NCBI GenBank assembly: GCA_963840455.1
Contig: CAWIYV010000014.1
Location: 384,001 to 448,000 of the forward strand
Direction of reading: 5' to 3'
Length of the DNA: 64,000 nt
DNA from: Nitrospirota bacterium
GTDB taxonomy: Bacteria > Nitrospirota > UBA9217
Position numbers and translations under genes: made by a program. A model generated the notes under the pieces. The model searched no databases and had not been told where the DNA came from. It saw only the letters and a program-made list of their open reading frames with translations. Positions 13,405 to 61,155 of the stretch are shown here, in pieces; the stretch's first letter is position 1; each line of letters starts with the position of its first letter.

Positions 13405-13644
13405 ATGGACCAGGACATCGAGAAGATCAAAGCGGTCATTGCGGAGAAGAGCAAGCGGTACCAGTCAAAGATGGGCGAAGTGACCTTCGCCGGCATCGAG
13501 GGCGGTACCGTGAAGATCGCTCCGTCGGGCTTCTGCTGGCGTTGACACGTCACCCGGATAGCCCTGGTCGAGGGCTTGCAAAAGGAGCTGAGCGCGGCGT
13601 TCCCCTGGGTCAAAAGGGTCATTGTGGTCAGGCCGGAGCCGTGA
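13405..13644 (+). CDS. NifU-like C-terminal domain protein with CxxU motif (probable selenoprotein, 79 aa)
   Basis: GGAGG RBS, ATG 13405; reads ...GEVTFAGIEGGTVKIAPSGFCWR-TGA(13543-45)-HVTRIALVEGLQKELSAAFPWVKRVIV; TGA sits at the second Cys of the NifU GxCxxC motif; downstream hairpin. Confidence 0.8.
13561..13575 (+). promoter_or_regulatory. Putative bacterial SECIS hairpin
   Basis: GCCCT-GGTCG-AGGGC, starting 16 nt after the in-frame TGA. Confidence 0.65.
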
Positions 13645-46952: not shown

Positions 46953-48323
46953 ATGAAAGCAAAGGTCAAAACCGTCTACGTCTGCCAGTCATGCGGCTCC
47001 CAGTCCCCGCGGTGGATGGGGAAATGCCCGGACTGCGGCCAGTGGAACACCTTGGTCGAGGAGCGGGTTGAGAAGCCGAAGGACATCGGGAGCGCCAAGC
47101 GGGGCCACGGCACTGAGCCCCTGTCCCTGGACGAGATCAAGACCGGCGACGAGGACCGCTTCGTCACCAGGATCGGTGAGCTGGACCGCGTGCTGGGCGG
47201 CGGGATCGTGACAGGCTCGGTGGTGCTGATCGGCGGCGACCCGGGCATCGGTAAGTCCACGCTGGTGCTCCAGATGCTCCGCCAGGTCTCGGAGTTCCGC
47301 GGCAAGGCGCTCTATGTCTCGGGCGAGGAGTCTCCCGCCCAGATCAAGATGCGCGCCCAGCGGCTGGGCGTCAAGGCAGAGAACCTCTACGTGCTGGCCG
47401 AGACGTCGCTCGACGAGGTCCTCCGCGCGGCTGATGAGCTCCAGCCGCAGGTGATCGTCGTCGATTCGGTCCAGACGGTCTACACTTCGGAGCTGCCTTC
47501 GGCCCCCGGCAGCGTGGGCCAGGTGCGCGAGGTGTCGGGCAGGCTCATGCTCTATGCCAAGCGCACGGGCATTCCCACCTTCCTCGTCGGCCACGTGACC
47601 AAGGACGGCGCCATCGCCGGCCCCCGCGTGCTCGAGCACATCGTGGACACGGTGCTCTATTTCGAGGGCGACCGGGGACACGCGTTCCGCATCCTGCGCG
47701 CGGTCAAGAACCGCTTCGGCTCAACGAACGAGATCGGCGTGTTCGAGATGAAGGAGAGTGGCCTTGCCGAGGTGGCGAATCCCTCGGAGCTGTTCCTGGC
47801 GGAGCGGCCGAAGGACGCAACAGGCTCGGTCGTTGTCTCTTCCCTCGAGGGCACGCGGCCCATCCTGGCCGAGCTCCAGGCGCTGGTGACGCCCACCAAG
47901 ATGACCATGCCGCGCCGCACCTCCATCGGCGTTGACTACAACCGCGTGTCGCTGCTCATCGCGGTGCTCGAGAAGCGCGTGGGCATGCACCTCATGGGCA
48001 TGGACGTGTTCGTGAACGTGGTGGGCGGCCTCAAGATCGACGAGCCGGCTGTTGATCTCGGCATCATCGCGGCCGTGGCGTCGAGCTTCCGCGAGAAGCC
48101 GATCAACGCGAATACCGTGGTCATGGGTGAGGTGGGCCTTGCCGGCGAGGTGCGGGCCATCAGTCAGGCAGAGCTTCGGCTGAAGGACGCGGCCAAGCTC
48201 GGGTTCACGCGCTGCATCCTGCCGGCCGTGAACGTGGAGAAGCTCGAGAAGACAGCGGGCATTGCCAAGATGCAGCTCATGGGCGTGCGGACTGTGGACG
48301 AGGCGATGGAGAGGCTGTTTTAG
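46953..48323 (+). CDS. radA: DNA repair protein RadA/Sms
   Basis: C4 zinc finger, GGDPGIGKSTL, KNRFG motif, Lon-like C-terminus. Confidence 0.97.
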   Translation: MKAKVKTVYVCQSCGSQSPRWMGKCPDCGQWNTLVEERVEKPKDIGSAKRGHGTEPLSLDEIKTGDEDRFVTRIGELDRVLGGGIVTGSVVLIGGDPGIGKSTLVLQMLRQVSEFRGKALYVSGEESPAQIKMRAQRLGVKAENLYVLAETSLDEVLRAADELQPQVIVVDSVQTVYTSELPSAPGSVGQVREVSGRLMLYAKRTGIPTFLVGHVTKDGAIAGPRVLEHIVDTVLYFEGDRGHAFRILRAVKNRFGSTNEIGVFEMKESGLAEVANPSELFLAERPKDATGSVVVSSLEGTRPILAELQALVTPTKMTMPRRTSIGVDYNRVSLLIAVLEKRVGMHLMGMDVFVNVVGGLKIDEPAVDLGIIAAVASSFREKPINANTVVMGEVGLAGEVRAISQAELRLKDAAKLGFTRCILPAVNVEKLEKTAGIAKMQLMGVRTVDEAMERLF

Positions 48324-48482
48324 CATCACCACTCCTTTTAACTTTGCGTTATGAAATGTTATAAAAAATGGGGAACCGCCAAGGCGCGAAGGACGCGAAA
48401 TGGAACAATAACCATAACGATCGTGCCTCCCTTTGTGCTCGTAGCGTCTTCGCGGTAAACTTCCTTCTCGTTCGCTTTCACT

Positions 48483-50390
48483 ATGGCCATCGGCACGCTC
48501 TGGAAATTTTTCGGCAACCGCCGCGGGATGATCATCCTTCTCATCCAGCTCGCCCTCCTGCTTACCTTCCTTCATTATTTTAGCGGCTATCAATCGAGCG
48601 ATAGATGTGCAGCCTGCCACGCGGACAAGGAGCGCATGACGAAACTGGGCTATCCTCAGTTCGTGATGACGCGCGAGCAGGTCCAGAAGGAATCGCGCCA
48701 CCCGAACACCGAATGCCGCGACTGTCACCTGGGCAACGGCCTCTCCGACGACCCTGACAAAGCGCACAAGGGGATGCTGAAGCTCATTGTGCTGGACAAT
48801 GACCTGAACGTCATGCCGCGGAAAGGGCATGTCACGCGGCTCCTCCCGTCAGGCAGCGACCGCCAGCGGAACATGCTGCCCCGCCTGGCTGACGGCGAGC
48901 TCGATTACGACGTGGGTACGCTCATGTGGCACGACCGAGATCCTGTCACCCTCGGCTACGACCCGAAGATCGCAGAGAGGACCTGCGGCAAGGCTGCCTG
49001 CCATCCCGACCAGGTGAAGCAGTTCTCCACGAGCAACATGGGATCGAACTTCCGGCAGCGGTCCATGCGGACGTGGAACGACATCCACGGCCCGAACAAT
49101 TGAGGCCCCTCCTTTGCGGACACCCTGCCGGTCGGCAGGGCGGAAGGCGACAAGTTCTCCTTCGATAACACCAGCAAGATCATGGAAGAGATCAACTACC
49201 CGCTGTCGCGTGAGCAGGCGGTGGCAAAGCAGAAGGCCTGCAACATCTGCCACACCGGCTGCCTCGACTGCCACTACACGCCGACAAAGGAGCGGGGCTC
49301 CCATGCCATGAGCCGCATCCCCCCTGCGCTGAACTGCACCGGGAACGGCAGGAGCACCTTCGTCTGCCATGCGGGCACCATGGAGCGCAGGCGCGGCGAC
49401 AGCTATCTGGGCAATGACTTCTCCGAGCCGGCCGGGCTTCCCGAGGACGTGCACGTGAAGCAAAAGATGGAATGCGTTGACTGCCACCAGACCGGACCGG
49501 GCGGTATGGGCCACATCGAACGTCGCGCCACCTGCCAGGATTGCCATCCCGAGGTCGAACAGGCCATGGCGCGGAGCATGCACAGGAACGTGGCCTGCGA
49601 GTCCTGCCACGTGAAGATCCTCGGCGGCTACGAGATGACCTCCTGGGGACCGGGCATGGTGCTGTCCCGGCCGAACCCCTTCAAGAAGTATTCATTATAT
49701 TACGGCCCCCAGGCGCCACCGATCCTCATCAAGGACCAGAAGGGCATCTGGATCCCGACCAAGATCTGGCCGAACAGTATGGGCGGCTTCAAAAATAGGG
49801 TCCAGCCGAAACCGGGCCTCGTGTTCCGGTGGCCTGACGGCCAGACGCGGGACGCCTACGCCCAGCTCGGGACCTTCAGCGTTCCCGGCGGGAACAACAA
49901 CTACCTCGCCTGGATCCAGGTGGAGCAGGTGGCCCATCCGCTCGGGAAATCCCGCACCTGCGGGAGCTGCCACGACGGCGCGGCGCAGACCGCGAAGGTG
50001 GCGTGGAGGTTCTTCGACACTCAGGGCGCGGAGCCTTTCACGGGCAGCCAGAAGGTGGTGGCGGACAGGAACGGGCTCCAGGTAAAGGACATCAAGGCCA
50101 CGTCGTCGATCACGCTCATGGAAGGCGGAAAGATCGAGAACTTCGCGGCATGGATGAAGCTCGGTGATATCTGGAAAACGAGCGGGGATTTCTCGATCCC
50201 CAAGTCGGATCCCGTGAAGTATCGGAAGCTGGAGGCCGGCATCCGCGATGCCATGAGGAAGCTCGATGCGGAGGACCGCGAGCTCAAGCGTCGCGAGGCG
50301 AATGGCGATGATATGAAGAAGCTGCGGCGCAGGTGGAAAGAGGCGAAGGCTGCTGCGGTGCATGAGGCCGGTCAGGTGGTGTTCCCGTGA
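48483..50390 (+). CDS. Membrane-anchored multiheme cytochrome c, probable selenoprotein (in-frame TGA 49101-49103)
   Basis: ORFs 48483-49103 and 49182-50390 are one frame separated only by a TGA (HGPNN-U-GPSF); 8 CxxCH plus CX4CH and CX9CH; SECIS-like hairpin. Confidence 0.82.
49123..49140 (+). promoter_or_regulatory. Putative bacterial SECIS hairpin
   Basis: CCCTGCC-GGTC-GGCAGGG, starting 20 nt after the TGA, with possible lower stem CCTT/AAGG. Confidence 0.7.
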
Positions 50391-50547
50391 GATATCCTTC
50401 GAGGACCCGCGACGACAGGATCGACCGCCGGGATGCGCTCATGACAGCGCTGATCGCATCCGCGCTGTTCTGTGGGTCTCCTGGACGGATAAACAGGGAA
50501 TCTGAGCCCGGCCCGGACCGCGACCGGCGTCAAGCAGGGGACACCCC

Positions 50548-51159
50548 ATGAACACCCTCATCAAGACCATCGAGGTCATCGGCATCTTTGCCTTCGCGAT
50601 CTCGGGCATCATCGAGGCGCGCAAGAAGGGCATGGACATCGTGGGCATCTATGTCGTCGGGATGGTCACGGCCTTCGGCGGCGGCTCGCTCCGTGACCTG
50701 GTCCTGAACCGCCATCCGCTCTTCTGGGTGGAGCACTACTGGTATCCCGTCATCCTGCTGTTCCTCTCCGCGCTTGCCAGCGCGATCGTGCGGCACGTGA
50801 CCGAGCACACGCGGTCCATGACCGTGGTCCAAGTGCTCGACGCGTTGGGCCTGGGGCTTTTCGCCGCCTCCGGTGCGTCGGTGGCCCATCAGGCCGGAAC
50901 CAACCCCTTCATTTCCTCGCTCATCGGGGTCATGACAGGCGTGTTCGGCGGCGTGTTCCGGGACATCATCTGCAACGAGATCCCCTATGTGTTCCAGCGC
51001 ACGGAGCTCTATGCGACCTGCGCGTTCGCGGGGGCGTGGTCCTATCTGCTGGTCATCGGCGCGGGGGGCGACGAGCTTACGGCCGTGATGAGCTGCATCA
51101 CCATCACCTTCGTGTTGCGGATTCTGGCGATACGGTATAAGATCAGGCTGCCGGTATAG
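50548..51159 (+). CDS. Trimeric intracellular cation channel (TRIC/UPF0126) family protein
   Basis: FAISG, TAFGGGSLRD, LDALGLG, TGVFGGVFRD duplicated motifs. Confidence 0.9.
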   Translation: MNTLIKTIEVIGIFAFAISGIIEARKKGMDIVGIYVVGMVTAFGGGSLRDLVLNRHPLFWVEHYWYPVILLFLSALASAIVRHVTEHTRSMTVVQVLDALGLGLFAASGASVAHQAGTNPFISSLIGVMTGVFGGVFRDIICNEIPYVFQRTELYATCAFAGAWSYLLVIGAGGDELTAVMSCITITFVLRILAIRYKIRLPV

Positions 51160-61043: not shown

Positions 61044-61091
61044 CAAAAAAGCCGGGCGCCTCGATATCGAAGATATTTCGGCAGCCCGGCT
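61044..61091 (-). terminator. Riboswitch expression-platform terminator
   Basis: GCCGGGC...GCCCGGC-TTTTTT on the minus strand, overlapping the aptamer 3' end. Confidence 0.8.
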
Positions 61092-61155
61092 GTCTCATGG
61101 AGATCCTGGGGTTTTCCGCCCCATCCTCGCGGATGGTTGAGTATTATCGTGTATC
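61072..61155 (-). ncRNA. GEMM-I cyclic dinucleotide riboswitch (c-di-GMP-I family, probably the 3',3'-cGAMP-sensing subtype)
   Basis: Minus strand CGAUAAUACUCAACCAUCC-GCGA-GGAUGGGGCGGAAAACC..GAGACAGCCGGGCUGCCGAAAUAUC; GNRA-capped P2 and layout as in Geobacter GEMM-Ib aptamers. Confidence 0.88.

Follow-up and report, generated by a model that had tools for sequence, protein, structure and literature searches.

Multiheme cytochromes c that contain selenocysteine (Sec) are a newly recognised class of proteins. One of them, MccSep/ExtKL (GSU2937-2936; NF040886), is a pentaheme Sec-containing polysulfide reductase characterised in 2026, and according to that account its Sec lies in a DGUP motif of a C-terminal Ig-like domain while a separate Cys ligates heme (PMC13510729). 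A table in a 2026 review names ExtKL, a GSU2204-family CXXCH protein and the octaheme tetrathionate reductase (OTR) family (TIGR04315) as selenoprotein families, the last as a GenBank-annotated family with the residue unnamed (PMC13188914). For OTR, one paper names heme II as the catalytic heme (PMC4484225), and another describes heme 2 as penta-coordinated and part of the N-terminal module (PMC9250108); the enzyme is also described as reducing nitrite and hydroxylamine (PMC4484225). Here we examine a gene at positions 48483-50390 of a 64,000-nucleotide stretch of DNA from a Nitrospirota bacterium (contig CAWIYV010000014.1, positions 384,001 to 448,000; hereafter the window). We consider it likely that this is one gene in which the UGA at codon 207 is recoded to Sec, that the product is a membrane-anchored ten-heme cytochrome resembling OTR, and that Sec207 lies at its catalytic heme.

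The predicted ten-heme family resembles MccSep in several respects: both are periplasmic multiheme cytochromes c with one UGA-encoded Sec and a hairpin like a selenocysteine insertion sequence (SECIS), both have Cys- and Sec-type homologs, both occur in Nitrospirota, and both are split by gene callers. MccSep may therefore serve as a model for Sec chemistry beside a heme. However, the family studied here has ten hemes, carries its Sec in an NNUGP motif within the N-terminal third, and has no second conserved free Cys. The original prediction, which was made from the letters of this DNA, held that Sec-containing multiheme proteins are rare; this is out of date, as MccSep/ExtKL has been characterised (PMC13510729) and the review table lists more families (PMC13188914). 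Sec-bearing cytochromes are thus already known, and what is new, judging from sequence comparison, is a separate family distantly related to OTR, which adds to the class. We found no description of this family among the papers listed on selenocysteine multiheme cytochromes, Nitrospirota selenoproteins and selenoproteomes, although supplementary tables could list it, and the main text of the BSepDB paper nowhere mentions cytochromes.

A UGA codon at a Cys position in a single reading frame

Two predicted open reading frames (ORFs), 48483..49103 (206 amino acids) and 49182..50390 (402 amino acids), share one frame, and reading through the sole internal TGA (49101-49103, codon 207, in the context HGPNN-U-GPSF) yields a product of 635 residues. 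This product has eight CxxCH motifs as well as CGKAACH (CX4CH, residues 168-174) and CTGNGRSTFVCH (CX9CH, residues 285-296), and its only strongly hydrophobic segment, residues 15-33, has a mean Kyte-Doolittle hydropathy of 2.12. The original prediction had described just these features, that is, one 635-codon frame with a single TGA, an N-terminal hydrophobic helix, eight CxxCH and two atypical motifs, and a perfect 7-bp hairpin with a GGTC loop after the TGA, and all of them are borne out by the sequence.

The codon at this position is occupied by Cys in all full-length homologs. A search of a collection of 5.8 billion proteins gave 403 matches; among the 120 that were listed and analysed, all 78 homologs of at least 560 amino acids have Cys in the motif GP[HN]N-C-GPSF. 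One other match has 550 amino acids, and the remaining 41 have at most 440, are without the motif and begin shortly past the TGA position; we conclude from the missing motif and the place of the start that these short entries are the C-terminal halves of Sec forms, which gene callers have split. The Cys207 column is invariant both in an alignment of 24 sequences and in one of 95 sequences, with relatives down to 27% identity, and even the full-length relatives furthest removed retain the Cys, in the form [GA]P[HQ]xCG. At the level of DNA, we kept 80 loci of 194 relatives on one-genome-per-species contigs. The codon at the column is TGA in 34, TGC in 29 and TGT in 16 of these loci, and one locus has no site. 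Six further TGA loci belong to a second Sec clade, found in a wider genome search in which 51 of the first 105 rows were marked as having one TGA inside (hand count). An internal TGA is not always the Sec codon, since of eight such genes that we fetched, six have TGA at the column and two (G054 and G002) have TGC there. The UGA thus stands at a position otherwise occupied by Cys, as in a SelB/SECIS-dependent selenoprotein gene, and on these comparisons the TGA at 49101-49103 almost certainly encodes selenocysteine.

The TGA does not stem from an assembly error, as in contigs from three other DNA studies neither 49101-49103 nor the hairpin has a listed difference, and a contig of 355 nucleotides bridges the TGA. 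An RNA run yielded only two 151-nucleotide contigs, on 48718-48998, which do not demonstrate transcription or read-through.

A conserved stem-loop 3' of the UGA

The hairpin downstream of the TGA consists of CCCTGCC (49123-49129), a GGTC loop (49130-49133) and GGCAGGG (49134-49140), which form seven perfect base pairs; the stem begins 19 nucleotides past the TGA and the GGUC loop lies 27 nucleotides downstream of the UGA. In the consensus fold of 35 Sec-type sequences the hairpin is the top of a stem-loop of three tiers whose 5' end is the G of the UGA, with a basal helix (49102-49105 with 49156-49159), a middle helix (49111-49115 with 49143-49147) and the apical helix (49123-49129 with 49134-49140). 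This is a stem-loop directly 3' of the UGA with G and U in a small apical loop, as expected of a bacterial SECIS element.

The hairpin is found with the Sec codon. A hairpin of the form CCnnnCC-GGTC-GGnnnGG is present in 34 of 34 TGA loci and is intact in none of the 45 Cys loci. The consensus stems are paired in 86.5% of cells, compared to 43-54% when the register is slid. The mean minimum free energy of the 60 nucleotides from the codon is -24.0 kcal/mol for Sec loci but -15.2 kcal/mol for Cys loci, a difference that is partly compositional, since the Sec loci are richer in GC (0.61 versus 0.53).

Two observations carry more weight than covariation within the first Sec clade, as we judge from the alignments: the freezing of synonymous codons and the stem of the second clade. 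The Thr, Pro and Val codons of the apical stem (at +7, +9 and +10) are ACC, CCG and GTC in all 34 sequences, and the mean synonymous codon entropy is 0.355 bits inside the apical stem compared to 0.96 at conserved residues outside it (Mann-Whitney p = 0.0037). In the second clade, a stem is formed in the same columns, (A/G)U(A/G)CCUCC-G(U/G)C-GGAGGU(A/G)(U/G/C), with four of the seven pairs altered on both sides relative to the first clade. Apical pairs are formed in 218 of 238 cells in the first clade (50-122 of 238 in slid registers) and in 41 of 42 cells in the second (19-27 of 42).

Some results limit what the hairpin shows, as does the compositional share of the energy difference. The single-sequence fold of the 81 nucleotides at 49095-49175 is unexceptional (z = -0.69; 42 of 200 shuffled sequences fold at least equally well) and is no evidence by itself, so that the significance of the hairpin rests on the comparative evidence. 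Within the first Sec clade covariation is weak, with changes on both sides in two pairs compared to a mean of 1.2 after shuffling (178 of 500 shuffles did as well), and in 20 of 34 distinct sequences the bases of the apical pair 26-37 do not pair. An Rfam search of the whole window at gathering thresholds reported no SECIS family, only a c-di-GMP-I riboswitch, and a scan for promoters and terminators in 48200-50650 returned nothing on the + strand.

Selenocysteine machinery of the genome

The genome from which the window comes (4.03 Mb in 14 contigs) has what is needed to decode UGA as Sec. Matches to selA (606.9 bits), selB (383.5 bits) and selD (359.8 bits) are all above curated cut-offs, with selA and selB adjoining on contig 7, and ARAGORN called a tRNA-SeC with the anticodon TCA. 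The selD gene (C14:252661-253584) itself has an in-frame TGA (...SRTCG-U-AAKIG), and the selenophosphate synthetase of this organism would thus be a selenoprotein as well. A crude scan of the genome for an in-frame TGA with a GGT-loop hairpin recovered three FdhA-like genes (GGUCU loops), a membrane protein (GGUC loop) and the cytochrome gene; given that the FdhA-like and membrane-protein genes share the loop type, a GGUC-type loop appears to be the usual SECIS style of the organism. Furthermore, selA is present in 12 of 12 genomes with a Sec form, compared to 8 of 12 with a Cys form.

The three checks by which the original prediction could have failed, namely alignment of homologs for Cys or TGA at the column, a search for the sel genes and a comparison with other reads, have all come out in its favor: Cys is found in every full-length homolog and TGA in 34 of the 80 loci, selA, selB, selD and a tRNA-Sec are in the genome, and contigs of three DNA runs agree at the TGA. 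Its reading of the codon as Sec is strongly supported by the alternation of Cys and TGA, the conserved and covarying hairpin, the Sec machinery and the co-occurrence of selA, and on comparative grounds we regard Sec decoding as established.

The window holds a candidate for a second selenoprotein gene, a NifU-like ORF of 79 codons at 13405-13643 on the + strand (Pfam NifU, E 2.8e-8), in which an in-frame TGA (13543-13545) gives the U of a C-W-R-U motif. The original prediction had described the loop after this TGA as the same as that of the cytochrome gene; GGTC is indeed contained in it, but the hairpin, at 13560-13576, has a 6-bp stem and a loop of five nucleotides, GGUCG in the RNA (AGCCCT-GGTCG-AGGGCT).

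Alternation of Cys and Sec within the family

The six TGA loci of the second clade (L137-L142) come from another taxonomic family and have the motif YGPQN-U-GPSF. In a tree of 84 rows, the two Sec groups fall into separate, well-supported clades among the Cys forms, and the starred branches force at least two switches between Cys and Sec. A single Sec origin, which had seemed to follow from the 80-locus sample and its earlier tree of 75 rows, was overturned by these TGA forms. One locus, L002 (the same as G313/G107), is the only Cys form nested in the Sec clade; it retains a decayed remnant of the hairpin, and no match to selA was found in the genome that carries it. Judging from these sequences, L002 is probably a reversion from Sec to Cys after loss of the Sec trait. 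The family thus offers clean natural experiments, with two independent gains of Sec that have different SECIS stems and a probable return to Cys in a genome that gave no selA match.

Judged by profile matches, the family is widespread in the Nitrospirota and small in sequence space. Matches to the family profile at E ≤ 1e-50 are found in 121 of 301 sampled Nitrospirota genomes, including 53 of 63 in the taxonomic family of the window, but only 184 of 1.84 billion representative proteins match the profile at E ≤ 0.001. Near-identical DNA is present in wetland, subsurface and freshwater metagenomes from at least three studies, and the window itself may come from one of them.

We considered whether the TGA could be a true stop, so that the locus would be a pseudogene, two genes or an assembly error, and whether it could be read through without selenium, by a near-cognate Trp or Cys tRNA or under an alternative genetic code. 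The split made by gene callers, the 41 C-terminal pieces among the 120 listed entries and the unexceptional fold of the single sequence are all compatible with a stop. But a stop would not be expected to recur at 34 of 80 independent loci and at six more in the second clade, with purifying selection on both halves and no other stops; nor does the downstream part have a start codon at a fixed place, as the starts of the fragments vary. With the agreement of the contigs from three other studies at 49101-49103, one of them bridging it, and with a full Sec machinery in the genome, we give a true stop almost no chance. Readthrough without selenium would leave the frame equally open, but nothing speaks for it specifically. 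TGA terminates other genes of the window and the genome, and the cytochrome gene itself, and such readthrough leaves unexplained the hairpin, the presence of selA in every Sec-form genome tested and the fact that homologs have Cys, not Trp; it is just as hard to credit.

Homology to octaheme tetrathionate reductase

Annotation models say little about this protein. Pfam reports only a Cytochrome_C7 segment, NCBIfam only weak matches of 17 bits to ExtN/ExtO (E ∼2e-3). We compared structures and profiles, using an AlphaFold2 model built from the 95-sequence alignment (mean predicted local distance difference test score 89.7, predicted template modelling score 0.88), which superseded a model from 24 sequences (score 71) that was too weak in the heme region. 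The only Foldseek match at E ≤ 0.001 is 1sp3, the Shewanella OTR (E 4.3e-4, probability 0.98). VIA-align superposes residues 162-575 of the model on 16-432 of 1sp3_A (Z 9.1, root-mean-square deviation 3.9 Å, 241 residues); this is the only match at Z ≥ 8, the runner-up (Z 6.5) covering the C-terminal helices only. In profile comparison by hhalign, the family aligns with an OTR-family alignment of 11 Nitrospirota TIGR04315 genes (20 of the 301 genomes score above the cut-off of this model) with 97.6% probability (E 3.3e-12, 188 columns). Hemes 3-9 of the cytochrome pair with OTR hemes 1-7 in order, and the VIA-align range adds the eighth. The atypical CX9CH motif is aligned to the CxxCH of OTR heme 4 with an insertion of seven residues.

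These alignments and the model establish an octaheme core with the heme order and fold of OTR, at the level of superfamily homology only. The protein does not match the TIGR04315 model (cut-off 375 bits) at E ≤ 0.01 and is not among the seven matches in its genome at E ≤ 10, and searches of the PDB sequences with family profiles returned only segments of NrfA, NrfH and reaction-centre cytochromes, and neither 1sp3 nor an MccSep entry, which the searched sets may not include. Because the TIGR04315 model fails despite the homology, we regard the family as a distant branch of the OTR superfamily and not as a member of the OTR family. It differs from OTR in having ten heme motifs instead of eight, with an N-terminal membrane helix and two additional N-terminal hemes (CAACH and CRDCH) that precede the OTR-aligned region and so lie outside the OTR-like module, in its CX4CH and CX9CH motifs and C-terminal helical hairpin, and in the lack of an invariant Lys in a GK motif. 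The heme motifs of the OTR-like module start at C168 (CX4CH), C253, C260, C285 (CX9CH), C331, C351, C372 and C493, and the module includes a beta-rich domain at about residues 383-540.

In both families, the loop that joins the first heme of the octaheme module to the second contains a Cys that can alternate with Sec. In the OTR alignment, this loop has an invariant G79-K80 and, eight residues later and ten before the heme-2 motif, an invariant Cys in NNFC. We take these two residues to correspond to Lys56, an unusual ligand for a heme, and Cys64 in the Shewanella OTR; the Lys is reportedly the ligand of OTR heme 2, which Mowat and colleagues are said to have described in 2004. Among 401 sampled Desulfobacterota genomes there are 67 TIGR04315 matches above the cut-off, of which 28 have one TGA (hand count). 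In all 12 of the TGA-containing OTR-family genes that we fetched (L125-L136), TGA replaces the Cys of NN[FY]C and is followed by a hairpin of its own. Recruitment of Sec seems to have happened separately in each of the two families, and the residue is therefore probably the chemical core of the OTR-type reaction, the physiological substrate of which is debated. The OTR link gives a testable hypothesis, that a Cys which can be swapped for Sec lies in a loop by the catalytic heme in both families.

Other named families are less close. The nearest named sequence neighbors are ExtM/ExtN of the Geobacter ‘selenite/tellurite reduction operon’ (NF040943, NF040967), and the farthest matches of the family profile are ExtM-like proteins of 131-349 bits, far under the cut-off of 800 bits, in which the Cys column is not conserved. 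Identity with MccSep/ExtKL was rejected, as the protein has no match to NF040886 (cut-off 250 bits) at E ≤ 0.01, and so was homology to it: against the MccSep of the same genome, the best BLASTP E value is 0.006, away from the Sec site, and the hhalign probability is 9%. That MccSep homolog, at C4:2287-3561 (locus L102:1477-2790), matches NF040886 with 563 bits and has its Sec in AIPDG-U-PTPNR, so that the organism holds both the known and the new kind of Sec cytochrome. A representative protein of 1152 amino acids, P0144, is an apparent fusion: the ExtKL/MccSep model, around its Sec region, matches residues 327-381 (E 2.5e-7), and the ten-heme family matches residues 515-1140.

Position and possible role of residue 207

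Residue 207 belongs to the loop that connects the hemes corresponding to OTR hemes 1 and 2. Its context is PNN-U (PxNC in Cys forms), and it lies 33 residues past the preceding heme His; in OTR the corresponding distances are 31 residues for the Lys and 39 for the Cys. In the 95-sequence alignment C/U207 is the only conserved Cys outside the heme motifs, and near the CX9CH heme there are three invariant residues, Arg290, Arg303 and Arg304, which would suit an anionic substrate. In OTR, the catalytic heme 2 is flanked by the Lys and the Cys/Sec of this same loop, and we therefore propose that Sec207 lies at the catalytic heme of this protein (heme 4), as nucleophile or ligand. Sequence and analogy make this a proposal that we rather favor than doubt. 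That the substrate is a sulfur or selenium oxyanion or a polysulfide, by analogy, has in our estimate somewhat less than an even chance, and direct oxidation of quinol by the N-terminal part is possible but rather doubtful. The suggestion in the original prediction that the Sec ligates a heme or takes part in catalysis, in a protein that handles sulfur or selenium, would fit the remote homology to OTR and the position of the loop.

Several observations do not favor this assignment. Sec207 is 46 residues ahead of the heme-4 motif, compared to ten for the Cys/Sec ahead of OTR heme 2, and hhalign sets it on a Lys that is not conserved, in a loop where the alignment is unreliable. Between H174 and C253, no Lys reaches 90% conservation in the 95-sequence alignment. 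OTR also reduces nitrite and hydroxylamine, so that the substrate may be of another class, and the genomic context is uninformative on function, because no sulfur-handling partner is conserved and the neighbors are housekeeping genes.

We weighed two other functions for the protein. It could be a pure electron-transfer or quinol-oxidising cytochrome, in which Cys/Sec207 is only an axial ligand that tunes the potential of one heme. Only about seven His outside the motifs are conserved (H95, H150, H274, H324, H367, H485 and H627), and thus some of the ten hemes must use other ligands; C/U207 is the sole conserved Cys outside the motifs, no conserved substrate-handling partner is nearby, the protein has a membrane anchor, and a distant relative, P0124, has a weak match to NapC/NirT (E 7.7e-5). 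However, the invariant Arg290, Arg303 and Arg304 together with the strictly conserved CX9CH segment resemble an anion-binding active site, the homologous OTR is an enzyme with its catalytic heme in the matching module, and Sec was recruited at least twice at this column and also at the active-site Cys in the OTR family. Sec is costly and typically catalytic, and we regard a purely electron-transferring role as unlikely. It is still less probable that the protein reduces nitrite or hydroxylamine, as OTR does in vitro or as NrfA does, with Cys/Sec207 accessory and no role in sulfur or selenium chemistry. Among PDB sequences, the family profile indeed matches Geobacter lovleyi NrfA best (6v0a, E 2.3e-8, profile 309-387), and nitrite and hydroxylamine reduction is described for OTR (PMC4484225). 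But the NrfA match is a heme segment of 80 residues only, the family has neither a CxxCK motif nor a conserved Lys ligand, and an invariant Cys or Sec by the catalytic heme is a hallmark of sulfur-handling cytochromes such as MccSep, TsdA and SoxAX (PMC13510729). The likeness to TsdA and SoxAX, whose catalytic hemes are His/Cys-ligated, would be functional only, with one chalcogen residue beside a heme c dealing with S-S chemistry (via PMC13510729).

We therefore prefer a recoded, OTR-like enzyme, which might work as follows. The stem-loop beginning at the UGA, with its 7-bp apical helix presenting the GGUC loop, would recruit SelB and Sec-tRNA(Sec). The product would be exported, as attachment of c-type heme requires, and anchored by its N-terminal helix; it would carry ten covalent hemes, two at the N-terminus and eight in the OTR-like module, followed by the helical hairpin. 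Electrons would arrive from the membrane side through the chain of hemes, and Sec207 would act as a nucleophile on a bond such as S-S or S-Se in an anionic substrate, with Arg290, Arg303 and Arg304 holding the substrate, or would alternatively be the distal ligand of the catalytic heme.

A stronger form of that alternative is improbable in our view: Sec207 would be an axial ligand of the catalytic c-type heme, a selenolate that replaces the Lys of OTR heme 2, and the protein would be a self-contained, membrane-anchored reductase from quinol to sulfur or selenium anions in uncultured Nitrospirota of wetland and subsurface. We know of no natural enzyme with a selenolate-ligated heme; in MccSep, the Sec merely adjoins a Cys-ligated heme.

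From the comparative data this appears to be a real selenoprotein gene of ordinary mechanism, in a distinct, unannotated family of Nitrospirota, for which a catalytic role is plausible. In public gene calls the Sec forms are split into two pieces, and annotation pipelines need a model for the ten-heme family.

Features of the locus and genomic context

Table 1. Features of the ten-heme cytochrome gene in the window
Feature	Window positions	Strand	Basis
Whole coding sequence of the putative ten-heme Sec cytochrome, 635 codons plus terminal TGA (50388-50390)	48483..50390	+	One-frame reading with TGA as U; homologs of 624-656 amino acids align end to end
Predicted N-terminal hydrophobic helix, signal anchor or transmembrane, residues 15-33	48525..48581	+	Only 19-residue window with mean hydropathy >1.6; helix 13-37 in the model
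Two N-terminal heme motifs, CAACH (residues 42-46, 48606-48620) and CRDCH (residues 78-82, 48714-48728)	48606..48728	+	Translation; nearly invariant in the 95-sequence alignment
OTR-like octaheme module, residues 162-575	48966..50207	+	VIA-align, Foldseek, hhalign
In-frame UGA, codon 207, almost certainly read as Sec	49101..49103	+	Invariant Cys column; alternation of TGA, TGC and TGT
SECIS-like three-tier stem-loop	49102..49159	+	RNAalifold consensus of 35 Sec-type sequences
Heme motif CNICH, residues 253-257, putative counterpart of OTR heme 2	49239..49253	+	KQKACNICHTG aligned with NWPRCTSCHAG by hhalign
CX9CH motif, C285...C295-H296, with invariant R290, then invariant G298 and RRG (303-305)	49335..49370	+	Invariance in 95 sequences
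Predicted C-terminal helical hairpin, residues 577-625	50211..50357	+	AlphaFold2 secondary structure; matches only generic helical bundles

The cytochrome gene stands alone between radA and a gene for a UPF0126 membrane protein; in Cys-type relatives, the gene lies between RodZ and RNase R. Among 76 ORFs around 20 loci we found no conserved redox or sulfur partner gene. Isolated neighbors are a Rieske protein with cytochrome b downstream at one locus (L077) and an FtrD-like gene upstream at two others (L060 and L070).

Two further features of the window lie downstream. An ORF of 875 residues at 53148-55775 (+) has an unusual architecture, in which a Tim44-like domain comes after several Hint- and intein-type matches (PT-HINT, Hint_2, and the N- and C-terminal splicing regions of inteins). 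The c-di-GMP-I riboswitch aptamer is at 61077-61152 (-) and scores 37.3 bits (gathering score 35).

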